Source of the DNA: Eledone cirrhosa
Taxonomy: Eukaryota
Length of the DNA: 64,000 bases
Direction of reading: 5' to 3'
NCBI GenBank assembly: GCA_964016885.1
Contig: OZ024742.1
Span: 351,230,001-351,294,000, forward strand
Position numbers and translations under genes: made by a program. Of this stretch, positions 15-62,445 are shown piece by piece; within the stretch, counting starts at the first letter, position 1, and every line of letters begins with the position of its first letter. A model generated the notes under the pieces. It had not been told where the DNA came from, did not search any database, and saw only the letters and a list, made by a program, of their open reading frames with translations.

Positions 15-1270
15 TTAGGTGTAGTGTTGGCGAATCTCAGGAAGCATGGAGGTTTTAAAGGATGCAGTGTCTCGACAGCTAACAACTGATGCAGGTAGTT
101 TGTTCCATGCTTCAGCATCTCTGAGCGTGAAGAAATGTTTCCGAAAGTCATGGGAGCTGTGCTGTTTTCTGACTTTGTTGGCATGCCCATGTGTGTTAGA
201 CACGTGGAAATCAAAAAGGTACTCAGGGTTGTTGTTGGCAAGAAGGTTAATGATTTTGTGAGTGTTTACCAAGTCAGTGGCCCGACGTCGGAGCATCAAA
301 GTATCCATGCCCAGGGAAGCAAGGCGTTCAGAGTATGGTAGATGCCTGATGGAGGGTATTGGTTGCACGTCTCTGAACAGTTTCCGGGCGGTCAATGTTC
401 TGGGCAAGATAGGGGTTCCAGACTGGTGATGCAAATTCTAAGTGGGGCCGCATCATAATTATATACAACTTTAAATAGATAGATGGAGAGCGGCTGACAA
501 AGGTCTTGCTGAGTGATGCTAAGGCACCCTGGGGTTCTTGACAATTTTAGAGACGTGCTTCGTTCAACGCAAATCGCTGCTGGCCGTAATGCCCAGGTCA
601 CCTTCACAAGAAGACTTCTTGGTATTAGTGTTGTAGAGGGAGTATGTGGACGGTGGGTTTTTACTCCCAAAACGCATGGTGGTACACTTCTCCACAGCTA
701 GCTTGAGTTGCCAGTCTGTGATCCATTGTTGCATTGTGTCTAGATCAGATTGCAGGCAAGATCTATAGTGTTCAGGATCTGTTCTTTTTATCTCAAGGTA
801 CAGCTTGAAGTTATCTGCATATTTCAGTACTGTGGCATTCTTTAAGTTGGCATCTGTGTCATTAATATATGCCACAAACAAAACGGGGCGAATAACGCAT
901 TCCTGTCGTACACCTGATAACATCTCATATGGTGAGGAATACTGTCCTCGAACCCTGACTACTTCTGCGACTGAGAATGAAGGACTTCAACCAGTTAAAA
1001 ATATCATTCTTCACACACATTGCGGTGTTTTGCCATAAGTTTTTGTGTGGCACATAATTGAAAGCTTAAGCAAAGTCAAGGTAAACAACATCCACCCATG
1101 GGCCGCCATCAGTGATCCGGGTGATGTCTTCAAGAAAATCAATAAGTTGATCACAGCAGCTGGAGTTAGGGATATATATGAATTGCGAGGGCCGGATAAG
1201 ACTGTGAGAGTTCCAGAAGTTCCAGAAGCGTTTCTCTCACACAGTTTTCCATCAGTTTGGCAATGCAGCT
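15..1270 (-). mobile_element. Decayed, 5'-truncated CR1-type LINE ORF2 (RT and C-terminus)
   Basis: Minus-strand frames give PWVDVVYLDFA*AFNYVPH (~1045-1100), SGVRQECVIRPVLFVAYIND...KYADNFKL...LQSDLD...WITDWQLKLAVEKC (564-923) and LPYSERLASLG...RRRATDL...RKHFFTLR...WNKLP (15-434). These are typical CR1-clade motifs, with stops and frameshifts. Confidence 0.9.
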
Positions 1271-1272
1271 AG

Positions 1273-3417
1273 TAAGACATCTACGGTAACATCTACTGTA
1301 ACATCTACGGTAACACCTACGGTAACATCTCCGGTAACATCTACGTGGTAACATCTACGTGGTAACATCTACGTGGTAACATCTACGTGGTAACATCTAC
1401 TGTAACATTTCCGGTAACATCTACGTGGTAACATCTACGTGGTAACATCTACGTGGTAACATCTACGGTAACATCTACGTGGTAACATCTACGTGGTAAC
1501 ATCTACGTGGTAACATCTACGTGGTAACATCTACGTGGTAACATCTACGTGGTAACATCTACGGTAACATCTACGGTAACATCTACGTGGTAACATCTAC
1601 GGTAACATCTACGGTAACATCTACGGTAACATATACGGTAACATCTACGGTAACATCTACGGTAACATCTACGGTAACATCTACTGTAACATCTACGGTA
1701 ACATCTACTGTAACATCTACGGTAACATCTACGGTAACATCTACGGTATCATCTACTGTAACATCTACGGTATCATCTACGGTATCATCTACGGTAACAT
1801 CTACTGTAACATCTACGGTAACATCTACGGTAACATCTACGGTATCATCTACTGTAACATCTACGGTATCATCTACGGTATCATCTACGGTAACATCTAC
1901 GGTAACATCGACGGTATCATCTACGGTAACATCTACGGTAACATCGACGTTATCATCTACGGTAACATCTACTGTAACATCTACGGTAACATCTACGGTA
2001 TCATCTACTGTAACATCTACGGTAACATCTACGGTAACATCTACGGTATCATCTACGGTAACATCTACGGTATCATCTACGGTAACATCTACGGTATCAT
2101 CTACTGTAACATCTACGGTAACATCTACGTGGTAACATCTACGGTAACATCTACGGTAACATCTACGGTAACATCTACGATAACATCTACTGTAACATCT
2201 ACGGTAACATCTACGTGGTAACATCTACTGTAACATCTACGGTAACATCTACGGTAACATCTACGGTAACATCTACTGTAACATCTACTGTAACATCTAC
2301 GGTAACATCTACGGTAACATCTACGGTAACATCTACGGTAACATCTACGGTATCATCTACGTGGTAACATCTACGGTAACATCTACGGTAACATCTACGA
2401 TAACATCTACTGTAACATCTACGGTAACATCTACGTGGTAACATATACTGTAACATCTACGGTAACATCTACTGTAACATCTACGGTAACATCTACGGTA
2501 ACATCTACGGTAACATCTACGGTATCATCTACGGTAACATCTACGGTAACATCTACGGTAACATCTACGGTAACATCTACGGTAACATCTACGGTAACAT
2601 CTACTGTAACATCTACGGTAACATCTACGGTATCATCTACTGTAACATCTACGGTAACATCTACGGTAACATCTACTGTAACATCTACTGTAACATCTAC
2701 GGTAACATCTACGGTATCATCTACTGTAACATCTACGGTATCATCTACGGTAACATCTACGGTAACATCTACTGTAACATCTACTGTAACATCTACGGTA
2801 ACATCTACGGTATCATCTACTGTAACATCTACGGTATCATCTACTGTAACATCTACGGTAACATCTACGGTATCATCTACTGTAACATCTACTGTAACAT
2901 CTACTGTAACATCTACGGTATCATCTACTGTAACATCTACGGTATCATCTACGGTAACATCTACGGTAACATCTACGGTAACATCTACGTGGTAACATCT
3001 ACGGTAACATCTACGGTAACATCTACCGTAACATCTACGGTAACATCTACGGTAACATCTACGGTAACATCTACTGTAACATCTACGGTAACATCTACGT
3101 GGTAACATCTACTGTAACATCTACGGTATCATCTACGGTATCATCTACTGTAACATCTACGGTAACATCTACGGTAACATCTACGGTAACATCTACGGTA
3201 TCATCTACGGTATCATCTACTGTAACATCTACTGTAACATCTACTGTAACATCTACGGTATCATCTACTGTAACATCTACGGTAACATCTACGGTAACAT
3301 CTACGGTAACATCTACGGTAACATCTACGGTAACATCTACTGTAACATCTACGGTAACATCTATGGTAACATCTACGGTAACATCTACGGTAACATCTAC
3401 GTGGTAACATCTACGTG
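1273..3417. repeat. 12-bp minisatellite (GGTAACATCTAC)n with TGTAAC, GGTATC and 14-bp GTGGTAACATCTAC variants
   Basis: Directly visible tandem array of about 2.1 kb. The VTST/VDVT/RRCY ORFs are translations of the repeat. Confidence 0.98.
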
Positions 3418-11178: not shown

Positions 11179-11301
11179 TACAATATATAACAGTTTTTCA
11201 AATAAGCTTCCTCAACCGAAAAGCCGGATGGCTTCCAAAAATAATGGTTGCATTTTAATAGGGTACGTCAAAGCTTATTTGTTAAACTGTTATATATTGT
11301 A

Positions 11302-12879: not shown

Positions 12880-13282
12880 TAGAGAGAGAATGTGTGTGTT
12901 GTTCACACACACACACATACACATTTGTTATCATTCAATAACACCCGATGGAGTTCTAAGAAAGCCGTAGTAACATACTTCGTTTCCTGGGAATGTTAGG
13001 CTAGAAGAGATAATCTCTCTCGAAATTTGAACATAGCAAATTACCTGCAGAGAAGGTTGTGTAGTGGAAAAGAGATATAGAGGGAACATGTTTTTTTACA
13101 TGATTGAGGAAATGTTTTTTTATGATTGCTATGTAGCTGGAAAGGAAGGACTGTTGAGATCGACGGGATTCGAAATCAGAGGGAAGAAAGCTGGAACGAA
13201 TAGCGGAAAGCATTCTCTCTGACGTTCTAAAGACTTTCTCTATCTCTCTCGCAGTGTGTGCGTGGGGGTGTATATATATATA

Positions 13283-14310
13283 CACCATCTGAGTGAGTTT
13301 CTTGGTCAGTGTCCGAGTCTCAGACCCATACAGCAGCACAGACTCCATCACAGCAATGATGAGGGATGGGATGACAGAGTTCTTTGTGATACTGGCTGGA
13401 GTGCTCCAGGGAGATACATTGGCTCCCTACCTTTTTATCATCGTAGTGGACTCTTGTATGCGCCTTGCACTGGAGAAACACCAGGACTCTGGCTTTACTG
13501 TAGCACCGGCTCAGAGCAGAAGAGTTAAGGCGAAAAAGGTATCGGATGCTGAATTTGCCGACGACATAGTTTTGGTGACAAATACAGTGAAGGAGGCAAA
13601 GGATTTGATGCGGGAGGTTGAGACTGTGTCGATGAATGTGGGGCTGAGAATGAATGAGACTAAAACAAAATATCTGGTAGAGAATGTTGAGAAGCCAGAG
13701 GGGATCACTAATGTAGGCGGGAAGCTGCTAGAATTGGTTGAGGGCTTCCTGTATTTGGGAGCAAAGATTGGGAATACGGAAGATGATGTGGTTGAGAGGA
13801 AGAGCAAAGCCTGGGCGGCGTGCCGCAGCTTGAGATCGGTGTGGAAGTCGGACCTTCGTAAAGACCTGAAGATCCGCCTCTTCATTGCTGTGGTGGTGTT
13901 TGTGCTTCTGTAAGGGTCTGTGACTTGGACACTGACCAAGAAACTCACTCAGATGGTGGATAAGTGCTACACGAGGATGCTGAGGATGGCTCTGAACATT
14001 AATTAGTATACACTGAGGATGAAAAACTCAGAGCTGTATGGGAGCATCCCAAAAGTCAGCTCAAAAGTGACACAGAGGAGACTGAGGTTAGCTGGACATG
14101 CTCACCGACATCCAGAGTTGACATTGCATTCGGTCCTCCTGTGGGAGCCCCTACATGAACACACTAAAAGAGGAAGACCAAGGTTAACGTATGTTGATGC
14201 CCTAAGGACAGACACTGGTCTGTTGGAGACGCAGGACATGGCAGCGATAATGAGGGACAGAGACTGCTGGAGAGAACTCGTCCATGGATCTCGGGAATTT
14301 TACCCGCCTT

Positions 14311-14399: not shown

Positions 14400-14450
14400 A
14401 GTTTAAGCAAAGAATCGCTGCTTTCACCCTTAACGGGATCTTCTGAAACT
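14400..14450 (-). ncRNA. Hammerhead-like motif with variant core CAGAAGA (family C)
   Basis: Reverse complement reads AGTTT-CAGAAGA-T-CCC GTTAA GGG-T-GAAA-GCA..TGC-TT-AAACT. Stems I, II and III all pair. Confidence 0.6.
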
Positions 14451-28720: not shown

Positions 28721-30040
28721 CCACAAAGAGCAACCCTTCAAAGTTAATTGACAATATATTGCCAAGTTCACTACAAGACAAAGCCAAAAATTATCTATCA
28801 AATCACATCTAGCAAGGAATATCGCAAAAAAGATTATGATGTCCAATAATGTCTACATATGTGTCTATATTTAATATATAAGTTACCTTGTATTTTTTCC
28901 TCAGCTCTTTCAGTATGAGGCCATTATACATGTCAGATGGGTAGCAGATAAGGCCGAACTTGAGAAAATGAATGTTGAAGCATCTTGTATAATGCATGAG
29001 TTGGAAATTGAGAACAGAACACAACCTTTCGTGCCCAGGAAACCGAAGATCAATATGAAGGACCACAAGAGGAATTTTGAGATTGACCTGCCAGTTAGAT
29101 TGATCGCACCTTCAAAATCGGACCTGGGCAAATTAAGCAAAAACATTCTTGACAGGGTGATACTGCAAATTAAGAACTTGGATTGTGTATCTAACCTGAG
29201 CTTGTGGAAGGGAACTGGAGAGGTTGTTGAGTGGTTTAGGCAAATTAAATATGACAATAATAATAGGTTTATTCAACTTGATATAGCTAACTATTATTCT
29301 TCTATTACCCCTAGTCTATTAAATAAGGCACTAAATTACGCATTCAAACATACGGACCTAACTAGCAAAGAAATGCATATTATATTATCGGCTAGGAAAA
29401 CTTTGATAGAATTTGATGACAAATTATGGACCAGAGCAGATAGAGATAGCAATTTTGACATAACTATGGGATCTTCCGACTCAGCTCAGATAACTGACCT
29501 TGTGGGCTTATTTTTAATCAATTCGCTACATAGGAAAATACCTGGTACTACCGGAGGTTTATATAGGGATGACATGCTTTTACTTATTAATAATAATAAC
29601 CCTGAACTAAATAGAAAATGTAAACAAATTACAAAATTTTTTAATTACTTTAACCTTAAAATAGAAATTGAGAACAACCATAGAATAGTCAATTTCCTAG
29701 ATATAACATTAAATCTCAACACATGTCTCCACTATCCTTTTCACAAGTTGAATGAAAACTTAAACTATGTCAACTTTAACTCTAACCACCCCAGATCTGT
29801 CAAAAACACTATAGTAAACTCAGTCCAAAAACGTATCTCTAGGATCTTTGTCACTTTTAAGTGACAAAGGTCTAGAGAATTCTGCAGACAGATTCAAAAT
29901 ACTGAGTGCATATCTTACTATTATCTTCGAACTTCTCTTAAACTAATCAACTATATGCCAAAGATCAACAGACACATTCACAAAAAAAACAAAATATATA
30001 TATATATGTATGTGTGTGTATGTATATATGTATGTGTGTG

Positions 30041-38656: not shown

Positions 38657-38726
38657 CGGTTACACAACAGATAGTTCACCATACCGAGAACAATTGTTTC
38701 ACCTTAGCGGATCCTCGGCTCGTAAT

Positions 38727-38766
38727 CCGAGCAGATGATCGGCTAAGGTGAAACAATTGTTCTTGG
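38727..38766 (+). ncRNA. Minimal hammerhead-like motif with variant core CAGATGA (family I)
   Basis: CCGAG-CAGATGA-T C(C/G)GCTAAGG T-GAAA-CAATTG-TT-CTTGG. It sits within a (TA)n-flanked fold-back module at 38655-38860. Confidence 0.6.
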
Positions 38767-40084: not shown

Positions 40085-42955
40085 AGCAAAACCTACGTCT
40101 GAAATGGAAAAACATCATTGTGGTATGTCCTTCAAAAACATACACATTCAGGGTAAAAAAGAATACATTCTTGGTATGATACAAAGGACCAACGAATGTA
40201 TTCGGCGGATTAGATGGAGGGCCTTCCACTTCGATAGGAAAAGGATTACACAAACTTCCGACACCAACAACAATAAGTTTGGTTTCAAATCCTACAAAAA
40301 CCCACCCTCTAACCCTCTTTTGGATTCTTTCAAGCAGGACTTAATGAAAATGATAACCGGAATCAAATTTACAAACGGAAGGAAAAACGACTGCAACGAG
40401 ATATTAAAACTCTACTCGACAACCTAAGGAATACCAAAGGAATTATCATAAAGGCAGACAAAACATCGAATCTATACACCCTGGATGTAGAAACATATAA
40501 TAATGTTATACGTAAGGAATTACATAGGAAGTACATATAAACAAACGCAACTACACTAACCAACATTAATGACGCAGCATGTGATATTGTTAAGAAACTG
40601 AAAATCTAAGACAGAACGGTAAACCTATCTCCAGCTACACCGACTTTTAATCTGAAGGACCATAAGGATAACTTCGATACTAACCCTAACATTAGATTAA
40701 TATGTCCTTCAAAGTCCGATATAGGTAGAATCAGTAAGTACATATTAGATCGTATTATCCCCCAAGTTAAGGCTAAGGTAGATATTAAATTATGGGGTAA
40801 TACTCAACAGGCAATAAGATGGTTCAATAACATTAGTGACAAAAACAAATCTTCTTTTATTCAATTCGATATAGATGAATACTATTCCTCTATTTCACGC
40901 GAAACCCTGCATAAGGCCCTCTCATTCGCTAAGACTAACTCTGACCTCACAAACGAGGAAATTAATATTATACTTGAAGCTAGACGCACAGTAGTTCATT
41001 TTGAAAATAGTTATTGGGTCCGCAGAGATAAGCCCTCGGAATTTGACATTACGGTGGGTTCTAATGATTCGGGGGAGGTCACGGATCTGGTTGGGATCTA
41101 TATAGCCCACAGACTCCAGAGCGAATTTACGGACCTCCACGGCGGAATATACCGCGACGATACACTTCTATTAGTCAAGAATATGAACAAACAAAACCTA
41201 GAAAAGCGACGTAAAAACGTTAGGAAACTTTTCTTAGAACTAGGGCTTAATATTACCTTCGAACACAATCTTAAGGTGGTCAACTTATTGGATGTCACCT
41301 TCAACCATAATAACGGTAATATAGAGCCATTTCACAAACTTAATGAAAATCTCAAGTACGTTAATGTAAAATCGAACCATCCCCATTCCATTATTAAATA
41401 TATCCATAAAAATATATCCATAAGGATCTCCCGACTGTCGTCTAATTTGCAGACCTTCAACGAGCTTGCTGAATATTGTAATGACGCACTTAGAAAAGCT
41501 GGTTACTGCGAGAAAATAGAATATCTAGACGATAACCACATAAGTACTATGAATAAAACACATCTAAGTCGAACTAGTATTGCACCACACACACACATCA
41601 ATAGGCATACTGATAGGTGCAAACCAGCAAATAGAGTCAGACGTAGAGAGTACATATGGTATAACCCCGTGTACAATATTTCTATTAGCACTAAGATTAT
41701 CTCACAATTCTATACACTAATCAATAAACACTTTACAACTTCACATAAATACTATAACATCTTTAACTCGCGCACCACTAGGCTCTCGTACTCCACTGTA
41801 CCTAACATATAACAACTAATTAAAAAACTCAACTCAGCAATACTAAATAAGTACATCCCTAATGACTCAGCGCACCAGCATAGCAACATACAACGCACTA
41901 ACACGCAACTACAACCCCACCAAACTATCCAGGATACTACCGCAAAACATAAAAATAATTGTAACTGCACGAAACCAGGTACGTGCCCACTGAATAACCA
42001 GTGCCTAGCACGCAATATTGTCTACCGATGTACAATAAATTCCGGAACCAACAAATGGTATTACGTCGGATGTACCGCAACTTCTTTCAAAGCTCGCCTA
42101 TACCAACATCGATCTTCGATCAGGCACGAGAAAATGCGCTCCGTAACAACCCTCGCCGATAAAGCCTGGCAGCTCCGGAGGAACAATCAAGCATTCTACC
42201 TTGATTGACAAATGATTGCGATGCGCCTGCATATAAGCAAAATCAACGATTCTGTCAATTATGCAAATTGAGATATACTGCATTTTAACGTCGGTAAACA
42301 AACTTTTGAACAACAAAATTGAACGTTCACTGTACTGTAACCATCGTTTGAAAACGACTTTTTCTTTTTTTTAAATGCATGTAATGTTACCTTTTTACAC
42401 CACCGTTTGCAAATTTCTGTTGTATATGTTTATACACAGGATATGGCCTTCTATAATAATAGTACTAAACACTGTTTTCTGGACCCCTTTAGAAATAACC
42501 TGCTACTATAATAGCCCCAATAACTTGTCTGTAACTCTGTACCACTTTGACCCCTTTAACTAAATTTTGTCCAAACAAAACCACTAGAATAATTTACTTC
42601 CCCCTGCCAACCCTAACACGCCTCAATAAGTTAACTGCTGCCAAAACATTCTCTCCTTACAATCTCTACTAGTCTGACAGTCTTAAATCCTAGGACTCCC
42701 TCCCCCTTACTCACTTTCCTCTTCCCCTTCTCTTCCTACATTCTTCTTTCTCTTTTATCTAGTGTATAAAATATTTTCATATCTTCCAATACAAAGGTCT
42801 GACGACATGGTGTGTTTGCTTGCTGTGTACCTTCGGTTTATGATAATATTTTTATATTATTCAAATAGCGAGGTATAGGTAACCCATACACTATAGAAAC
42901 AATTGTTACCTAATAAATTCTTTATACCCGCATTTCCGTTTCATAAACTTCTTCT

Positions 42956-56401: not shown

Positions 56402-59400
56402 AGTTATACTTGGGGAGGGTCATATTTGTGTAATATTGCCAGAATTAATAACAGAACACACTCACTGTTTGGTTGGTTTTCGCTTGTCGCTGTCTTTTAT
56501 ATCGGTAATCTAACTTACTCAGTCCTCAATGTTGCCATTGACTGACCGATGGTAGAAATAACAGTAACACCAACAACAATAACAGTGAAGTAAACAACAA
56601 TACACATAGCAATCATAACAATAATAATAATGCTAATTATAGAAACAACAACAACCACCCTGATAACAATAATAGCAACACACACAACTATGACGATAGA
56701 TATCATGACAACCCCTTAGAGAAACTATTTTTCAACCCAGCTGACAAAACATATAAAATGGGTAATATCTATCCTACGAGGTTACCCTCTAATAAAAGAG
56801 TTTGCATACCACAACAAATAGATGAGACAGAGGCACAGTTCACCATAGCTAGAAATAAGATTAGACAAATAGTAGACAGCTATACTAAGAGACAGAGAAG
56901 ACCAGAGGCCCAACAACTTGGGAGGAAACCTGTAGAAGGCTTGGTTAGCCTCAAGCAGAATACAAGGGATGGTGAGGTAGTGTGTCTACCCGCGGATAAG
57001 TCTGGTAGGATGTCAATAGATAGCATGCCGAACTACATGGAGGCTATGCAACCCCACATCACCAACACGAGCGAAGTTGCACAACAAACACACGATGGGA
57101 GAGAAAAAATCCTCAACGCTCACATGATGATGTGGACTGACATCCTAAAGCCAAGCAGACGCACTGCCAACAACATCCAGGCGTCTAACAATGGCATACC
57201 ACCCTTGTATGAGCTCCGCAAAGACCACAAGAGAGTCGACGACCCGACAACGGGACCACCAATAAGACCCGTATGCGGAGCTAATATAGCTAGCAACTAC
57301 AGGACCTCCTACTTCCTCTCAATGGTTATACGCCCCATAATCAAAATGTCCCCAGATGTATGTGACAGTACAGAGGACCTCCTCAGCAGAATCAGTGAGT
57401 GCAACAAAAACAGGAGCCTATTCAACTGCATAATAGGCAACATGGATGTGGTGTCACTGTACCCATCCATTAACATTGATTTTGCTGTGAAAAGATGTGT
57501 GGAGATGATCATTGAGAGTGAGGTGGAGTTCTGCGACGTCGACACAGACGAACTGGGCCTCCTACTTAGACTTACCTACGACACTGAATACCTAGACAGC
57601 CATGACCTTAGATGTTTCTGCCCTAGTAGACCTATAAGAGGTAGACCCCCCACCATAACCTCAATGGCAAAAAAAACTCCCCTGGGAAGGTGGATTGGGT
57701 GGACCAAAGCTATACGGACCCCCCAAAACAATGATCAGGTAAGAAAAATGGTCGCACATGCAATAGGGGCTAGTATGAAAACTACCCTAAGGGCCACATA
57801 TTTAAGTTCAACGAGAAAATCTACCCCCAAAATGAGGGAGCAGCCATCAGCGTCAGCATAGCTGGTGATGTTGCCAACCTTTTCATGGTATGGTGGGAAA
57901 GGAGACTTAAAGATCTCCTTAATGAAAGCTCCATAGACCTCATCATGTACTCTCGTTATGTAGACGATATCAATATAGTTATAAGAACACCCCCACTAGA
58001 GAGCACTAACAGTTTGATTTATAACGTAGCACGATGGAAAGCATCCAGCAGATAGCTAATTCCATACACCAGAGTATAACTGTAACTATCGACTTCCCTT
58101 CCAAACACCCTAACAATAGACTACCTGTATTAGACACAGAACTCTGCATTAACACTATAGACGAGAGAGCACAAAATCTCCACTCACACTATGCTAAACC
58201 CATGGCCTCCAAATACTTGATACTCAAAAACTCAGCAATGTCCAGTAGTGCCAAGTTTAATATTTTGATCGCAGATTTGGTACGAGTGATGAAGAATGTG
58301 TCCCGCATGTGCGACCCAAGAGAAATGGAAAGACACATCCAACACTTCATCAACCGCATGCAGTTCTCTGGCTACAACCAAAGAGACAGAGTCAGAGTAT
58401 ACGAAGGACCCATGGAAAAGTATAAGACCCTCATAGAACTGGTCATGAAAGGAATTTGCCCATTATACAGGAGCAAATCATGGAATAGCTGAGATAGAGC
58501 TAGACATAAGATAGGGAAAACCACCTCATGGTACGACAACCAGAGATACCAGAGTCAGAGTTTCATTTTTGTAGACGCCACCCCTGGACGGAAATTTGCT
58601 AACCAGTGTAGAAAGGTCCTGAGAAAGACCCACTTAAAAATAAAGGTGGTAGAAAAGCCAGGAACCACCATAAAATCCCTGATCAGCAAAACCTACCCTT
58701 TTAAGAAAACCGTCTGTAACAATAGGAAATGTATCATATGTAAGGTGAACCCCCGGATAAACTGTAAAACTAGAAACGTAGTCTATAGCATTAGATGTAC
58801 AGAGGGTACTTGCAGAAACATGACAACAACATACATAGGTGAGACAGCTCGTAGCATAGGTGAAAGGATAGACCAACACTGGGGGGAACTAAAAGGACGA
58901 ATAAATGTGTCAGTACTATACGAACATGCTAGACAACAAGATGACGGTAACATAGACAACATAGAAATTAGAATAATATCTAAACATAGAAATGACCCAG
59001 CAGATAGGCAAATCAGAGAGGCCAGTGAAATAGAAATTAGAAGACCAAAGCTAAACAGAAAGAATGAATGGAATAACAACAACACCCAAACAAACAACAC
59101 TGACCTAAGAGAAGTATAAATAAGTAAATAAAATGAGATAAATAAATAAATAAATACATACACAAGCACAATAACAACAAGCACATAAACACACACTAGT
59201 CACCCATCACACAGCAAACATAACAATATACACACACGCAAACGCATGCGCAAAGAAGACGAAATAAAATAAACAAACAAGCAAATAAATAAATAAATAT
59301 ATAGACAGACTGAATAAAAATGGCGTAGACTTACAACACAACAGGAGGAAAATATAACACCACTGACGATGTTGCAGATGTGCAACGAAAGATTTATGAT

Positions 59401-59780: not shown

Positions 59781-59807
59781 CAAATATTAATTAAAATGAC
59801 AGATTAA

Positions 59808-59858
59808 AGTTTAAGCAAGGAATAGCTGCTTTCACCCTTAACGGGATCTTCTGAAAAT
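59808..59858 (-). ncRNA. Hammerhead-like motif with CAGAAGA core (family C)
   Basis: Reverse complement reads TTT-CAGAAGA-TCCCGTTAAGGGT-GAAA-GCA..TGC-TT-AAA. Confidence 0.55.
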
Positions 59859-60008
59859 AACAAAGTCAATCTCTGAACGCAGAAGTGAATATTTCAAAAA
59901 AACGTTGCAATCTGTTATTTTAATAAATATTTGCTCTACGGTACTGATATATATGATATATATTTATCCTTATCGAGTCCTCTTTCGATTTTAGTCTTCA
60001 AATTCATT

Positions 60009-60039
<31 letters not shown>

Positions 60040-60124: not shown

Positions 60125-60184
60125 ACTTAGGATTCTATATTCATGATGATTCTTCCTGAATTTCGTTTCATTTCTTCCGTATGT

Positions 60185-60725
60185 ATCTATCTATCTATCT
60201 AAGGCGGGTAACATTCCCGAGATCCATGGACGAGTTCTCTCCAGCGGTCTCTGTCCCTCATTATCGCTGCCATATCCTGCATCTCCAACAGACCAGTGTC
60301 TGTCCTTTGGGCATCAACATATGTTAACCTTGGTCTTCCTCTTCTAGTGTGTCAAAGATTGGGAATACGGAAGAGGATGTGGTTGAGAGGAAGAGCAAGG
60401 CCTGGGCGGCGTGTCACAGCTTGAGATCGGTGTGGAAGTCGGACCTTCGTAGAGACCTGAAAATCCGCCTCTTCATTGCTGTAGTGGAGTCTGTGCTGCT
60501 GTATGGGTCTGAGACTTGGACACTGACCAAGAGACTCACTCAGATGGTGGATGGGTGCTACACGAGAATGCTGAGGATGGCTCTGAACATTAATCAGTAT
60601 ACACTGAGGATGAAACACTCAGAGCTGTATGGGAGCATCCCAAAAGTCAGCTCAAAAGTGACACAGAGGAGACTGAGGTTGGCTGGACATGCTCTCCGAC
60701 ATCCAGAGTTGACATTGCACTCCGT
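60185..60725 (-). mobile_element. RTE LINE (same family as 13283-14312) with 5' inversion
   Basis: 60198-60351 is the reverse complement of the 3' end (14160-14313), with a (TAGA)n tail. 60353-60725 is the upstream part (13762-14133) in the opposite orientation. Confidence 0.92.
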
Positions 60726-60735
60726 ATATATATAT

Positions 60736-62445
<1,710 letters not shown>

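Follow-up and report, generated by a model that had tools for sequence, protein, structure and literature searches.

The hammerhead of family C in the genome of Eledone cirrhosa carries A at core position 4 (A4) as its family state, and U4 is no commoner in this family than other point changes. With three letters of stem I required in the search pattern, A4 was found in 20,729 of 20,960 matches (98.9%); in the same context T4 occurred 99 times, and C4 and G4 together 132 times. From comparative sequence analysis we hold, with moderate confidence, that the A4 hammerhead of family C is a tolerated, slow and possibly protein-assisted ribozyme, for which cutting is predicted.

Position 4 in families C and I

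The genome (3.0 Gb) was searched with the pattern of the family C core and stem II, position 4 being left free. This search recovered 24,327 exact matches, against 0 for the reversed control, and the family is therefore not due to chance. T4 was present in 6 of 100 among the matches listed; five of these six are fold-back junctions, where the near-palindrome TTCAGAA turns the CAG of one arm into CTG on the other strand or arm. Fifteen U4 copies with stem I do not group into a lineage, since they come from different subfamilies or from junctions. No U4 sister family was found among the 183 matches (control 85) obtained with any stem II between the family C flanks, and the ones listed were mostly scattered single mutants of C. 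All common family C haplotypes, in every subfamily, are A4, and the public run X1 (16,021 contigs), possibly derived from the source sample, contains no family C variant at 2% or more at position 4. In runs of other organisms family C is represented by 1 to 39 contigs at low depth (in one raw run, by 1 read in 12.8 million); these traces are likely carry-over, and no spread across species is claimed. The core displays C3, G5, A6, G8, A9, G12, A13, A14, the pair A15.1-U16.1 and H17, and lacks U4; family C is filed as a type I hammerhead variant and not as a canonical member.

The window, i.e. the whole stretch of 64,000 nucleotides analysed, contains the following copies of families C and I:

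14400..14450, minus strand: family C type I hammerhead with the A4 core (A4 at 14444; predicted cut between 14405 and 14404), in a short 5'-truncated insertion between (TA)n runs, without outer stem I
59799..59874, minus strand: second family C hammerhead copy, CAGAAGA (C3 at 59853, A4 at 59852), an aged copy with outer stem I and the U-rich bulge
59909..60012, plus strand (ends approximate): inverted partner of the 59799..59874 insertion, pLTR sequence 3' of the cleavage site
38727..38766, plus strand: family I hammerhead, decayed copy with a sporadic A4; the family state is U4
38685..38722, minus strand: the other arm of that fold-back insertion (family I), where a sporadic C4 occurs

The family C copies of the window are truncated or aged insertions and not source elements. 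On the minus strand, from 14450 to 14400, the first copy displays AGTTT (stem I), CAGAAGA, T-CCC-GTTAA-GGG-T, GAAA, stem III, CTT and AAACT. The initial annotation had read CAGAAGA in both copies (14400-14450 and 59808-59858), and these letters are confirmed on the minus strand. Its statement that stem I was kept is correct for the first copy and loose for the second, in which one inner pair is broken (ATTTT against AAACT); in the 38727 copy stem I is altered. Rfam gave no hammerhead among its 103 matches in the window at E≤1, a result of little weight, since Rfam also missed the window's hammerheads with a canonical core.

The same annotation had proposed families C and I as two unrelated families sharing a tolerated A4 core, with U.U at the base of stem II and an NUU triplet as possible compensation. 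The plus strand at 38727-38766 reads CCGAG CAGATGA TCGGCTAAGGT GAAA CAATTG TT CTTGG; the announced CAGATGA is thus present, but in a copy that is unrepresentative of its family. When CAGANGA and CTGANGA are counted by family, the consensus of C is A4, whereas family I displays CTGA in 100 of 100 among the matches listed (total 4,039). Family I was ruled out on this count as a second A4 family, the 38727 copy being an outlier. This copy differs from its family by A4, by U7 for R7, by a broken stem II pair (TCGG for TCCG) and by a change in stem I; these four differences, together with C4 on the opposite arm, indicate ordinary decay. Tolerance rather than decay is supported for family C and fails for the family I copy. 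Likewise, the recurrence of one change in independent families does not apply to the pair C/I, and it reappears at position 4 through families X (A4) and Z (C4). The word "unrelated" was also too loose, as both families have Hydra-type hammerheads of one build and their RTs share one supported clade in a quick tree restricted to proteins of this genome. Finally, U.U and NUU are ordinary features of the Hydra clade and occur with U4 in family I, which rules them out as compensation for A4; no other specific compensating change was found.

The family C element and its known relatives

Its motifs and organization identify family C as an autonomous Penelope-like element (PLE) of the Hydra clade, with the hammerhead located in its pLTR. 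At the reference locus L081, two hammerheads 3,259 bp apart flank an RT/GIY-YIG (RT-endonuclease) ORF. This single ORF encodes the RT followed by the C-terminal endonuclease, and the protein (P0001) contains the motifs RWR, SDKT and CNCRNRVDC (CxCX5C); no family was returned for it by Pfam. The loci display the tandem pLTR arrangement, 5' inverted insertions, a tail and (TA)n targets or flanks. Long copies are 88-97% identical to L081, and a wholly open ORF was found in none of 14 stretches inspected.

In the full motif, stems I, II and III are placed around a three-way junction in the type I order. Stem I is composed of a 5-bp inner part and a 9-bp outer part split by a 7-nt U-rich bulge, stem II of 3 bp over U.U with the loop GUUAA, and stem III of 5 bp. 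The motif would need no dimer, and dimerisation is of little relevance to family C because stem III has 5 bp and a non-palindromic loop; with its full stem III, the motif differs from the minimal dimer type described by Cervera and De la Pena (2014, PMC4209133). A G...A loop II and the U-rich bulge of stem I, which varies between subfamilies, are both present and suggest a tertiary contact between loop II and stem I. With ViennaRNA, the hammerhead is not the lowest fold (-13.5 against -15.6 kcal/mol; z -0.75).

Subfamily-diagnostic changes, defined as changes shared by at least 10% of the copies, were counted in 56 copies that had not been chosen for U4. They affect seven of 45 upstream positions and two of seven bulge positions (9/52 together), and none of the 69 motif positions in stems, loops and core (Fisher p 0.0003), a comparison biased at positions 927-950 since many loci were picked by the core pattern. 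In run X1, where no pattern selection operates, the variable sites are the same as among the 56 copies. At their 3' ends the copies keep the complete motif and extend beyond the cut site by 29 nt (57 at 996) or by about 114 nt (46 at 1081-1082). The 5' ends cluster in the 5' strand of inner stem I, with 41 alignment starts at 920-926 (L081 coordinates) against 11 at 880-919, counts that are affected by locus selection. Fold-backs centre on TTCAGAA, and family I copies present a similar picture. The clustering of 5' ends could reflect stalling of the RT, or self-priming, at the hammerhead.

The Hydra-clade PLE hammerheads described by Craig et al. (2021, PMC8557442) resemble that of family C: they are of type I, on the sense strand at the 3' end of the element, with a short stem II with basal U.U (14 of the 26 rows of File S2), an NUU triplet and (TA)n targets, and the proteins display RWK-like, DKT and CxCX5C motifs. 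However, all 26 rows of File S2 contain CTGA, which is demanded by the descriptor, whereas family C has A4 and family Z has C4. As described for PLEs, the hammerhead is carried by the pLTR; its presumed role is to cut tandem transcripts, and its activity in vitro is low (PMC4209133). The U3-A8 hammerheads of the same study are similar to C in having a family-level core change in the pLTR and an expected low in vitro activity. U3-A8 is nevertheless a compensated pair swap, whereas A4 is an unpaired change for which no partner was found.

In the canonical core, U4 contacts the A6-N7 phosphate (PMC3088659). Position 4 also varies in nature in viroids, where U4C is slow in vitro and sufficient in vivo (Perreault et al. 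2011, PMC3088659). That study concerns U4C only, in rare viroid variants, and its main text contains "U4A" 0 times, whereas A4 is here the majority state of more than 20,000 copies. Among 50 MS2 escape plaques, no inactivating mutant was located at U4 (PMC4075628). Natural U4C and U3-A8 are thus already in print. A natural A4 at the family level is apparently new; no natural U4A hammerhead was found in the literature, an absence that is not secure since figures and most supplements were outside the scope and variant tables could hold A4.

Recurrence of changes at position 4

A scan with position 4 left free was applied to the window and 94 random 10-kb stretches (1.0 Mb together) and to targeted loci. 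It detected 30 multi-locus clusters, of which three (F7, F20 and F22) were judged false and three, namely C, X and Z, have a fixed non-U at position 4.

Family X, which is unrelated to C, is a permuted non-coding unit of about 500 bp with long stems II and III and the triplet GUC (L150-L179). A4 is present in 97 of 100 among the matches listed (total 523); U4 is the state in more distant relatives (about 66-73% identity). In the 28 copies scored out of 30, pair 2 of stem I is C-G in 13, U-A in 10, U.G in three and another combination in two; in the same 28 copies, the stem III pair is G-C in eight, A-U in 16 and another combination in four. The U-A form of stem I sits inside the A4 tree. The stems of X covary and, as the sequence tree indicates, the double-sided changes came after A4 was fixed. 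No ORF linked to the unit was found. Non-LTR retrozymes are short non-coding tandem units that have a type I hammerhead and occur as circular RNA; at the DNA level, family X is retrozyme-like. A relative of this family lies within a long inverted repeat at 60733-62109 of the window, with a U3-A8 core (TTGATAA) and very long stems II and III.

Family Z is a young Hydra-type PLE with a unit of about 4.19 kb and open ORFs of 832 codons in three of six loci; loci L220-L222 are located on C1 near 62.78, 73.18 and 56.98 Mb. Its hammerhead has an 8-bp stem II and a palindromic stem III that varies between subfamilies. C4 is present in 99 of 100 among the matches listed (total 4,339), although C4-G5 is a CpG.

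A second scan, in which a single one of 11 core positions could be mismatched, was performed on 320 sequences (1.79 Mb) and detects only abundant families with good stems. Position 4 is the only core position singly changed across a whole family (three of three changes), for which the chance is near 1 in 120 if equal positions are assumed. The other core changes were scattered single copies or artefacts. Three clusters were dropped: the one at position 16.1 was a mis-registered canonical family, the one at position 8 came from the family C ORF, and the one at position 6 was a canonical family read in antisense. Candidate family Y (CAGATGA, 1,126 matches) proved to be flanking sequence, on the antisense strand, of a canonical hammerhead that belongs to a repeat of about 430 bp, and candidate F26 is canonical, with U4 in 96 of 100 among the matches listed.

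In the quick tree, which is weakly resolved and contains only proteins of this genome, C and Z belong to separate clades. The nearest relatives of C (L293 and L142) are upstream of U3-A8 hammerheads with U4, a linkage made by position only. Three separate origins of the non-U position 4 are likely on these sequence comparisons. The U3-A8 pair is also found in this genome, in five hammerhead families at least (clusters F12, F16, F18, F24 and F30).

Because CUGANGA is built into the usual descriptors, they miss families like C, which accounts for 15 of the 136 matches obtained in the random sample (1.0 Mb). Versions with A4, C4 and U4 exist naturally in comparable contexts, and family C itself has U4 copies; such pairs lend themselves to asking whether cutting is indispensable for PLE hammerheads and to what extent a weak core is rescued by the element's protein.

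Predicted activity of the A4 hammerheads

If the A4 ribozyme is tolerated, position 4 would be the least costly core position to change, being neither general acid nor base. The loss due to A4 would be offset by the stable monomer fold (5-bp stem III, 5+9-bp stem I), to which the U-rich bulge facing loop II would contribute. It would also be offset by a low demand on cutting, because the PLE needs uncut RNA as template, and its tandem transcript would need only occasional cutting. The family C hammerhead would then cut slowly, and might do so only when bound by the element's own protein. A known parallel is the hammerhead of the Anolis Poseidon element PAc, which cuts only with its protein (PMC11167929). 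As in C, this hammerhead is in the pLTR upstream of the ORF, with two 3' end points (tail), and the insertion template is uncut RNA. PAc differs by its canonical core, tested at positions C3 and G8, and belongs to another PLE clade. In family C the catalytic positions are kept and only the most tolerant one is changed, as continued selection on catalysis would predict.

A less probable explanation is that the A4 hammerheads have no or negligible catalytic activity, their fold being kept for protein binding or for the start or stop of reverse transcription. It is consistent with the counts of 5' junctions, 412 for the predicted cut site and 680 for a matched TTAA site in loop II, which show no excess at the former; the comparison had no positive control, and the active Anolis hammerhead likewise has no reads ending at its site (PMC11167929). 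The copies ending past the cut site with the motif whole also point to uncut templates, and when a type III hammerhead was scanned in full by mutation, every single or double mutant of its CUGA turn had low activity, except for the C-G swap (PMC9901934). The amplification of family C is no proof of cutting, because hammerhead-dead Anolis PLE mutants insert normally in vitro (PMC11167929), and protein binding alone could explain the conservation, because the conserved region also holds the 3' tail recognised by the RT. Nevertheless, a dead core should drift at any of the 11 positions, whereas all three family-level changes are at position 4, and G5, A6, G8, A9, G12 to A15.1 and U16.1 stay while the stems of X covary. 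A further explanation is neutral hitch-hiking of a broken hammerhead that is under no selection and is carried by a prolific source element: sporadic changes at position 4 are indeed common in old copies (the family I copy of the window; four of 100 among the F26 matches listed), but the absence of diagnostic changes from the motif and the double-sided changes in X after the fixation of A4 largely refute this explanation, which we consider very improbable.

It is unlikely that A4 is specifically compensated or selected, either by a partner change (A7 or a tertiary contact) restoring near-normal speed, or as a brake in which an off-fold, pairing stem I-C3-A4 with U-G12-A-A-A, persists until the protein remodels it. 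A7 is present in C, Z and most X copies; however, it is also common with U4 (family I), A4 occurs with U7 in six of 100 X copies among the matches listed, and the mutational scan reports no rescue within the turn (PMC9901934). The brake agrees with the predicted probability of the C3-G12 off-pair in family C copies, to which this prediction is limited, of 0.40 with A4 against 0.02 in the U4 copy L044 with the same flanks. In other C subfamilies, however, the off-fold is weaker (0.08-0.53), and in one U4 copy it reaches 0.31.

An extension of the tolerated slow ribozyme, which we regard as rather doubtful, is that Penelope hammerheads are tuned through position 4. Both A4 and C4 cores would be active in the element's RNP, would have had at least three independent origins in one genome and would be favoured since a throttled, protein-gated ribozyme spares uncut RNA. 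The "invariant" U-turn would then be a search artefact hiding abundant natural ribozymes.

The window contains other related elements. Canonical CTGANGA type I hammerheads of other families are located at 11300, 15194, 27291, 31004, 39782, 45720, 47125 and 47337. Broken PLE ORFs were observed at 28875-29864, 40370-42208 and 56542-59119, two of which are Hydra-type (37-46% to P0001), while the third belongs to a different type of PLE. RT gene fragments at 423-986, 13001-14300 and 60180-60744 were judged by eye to belong to non-LTR retrotransposons, and a tandem array with a 12-14-bp unit occupies about 1270-3400.
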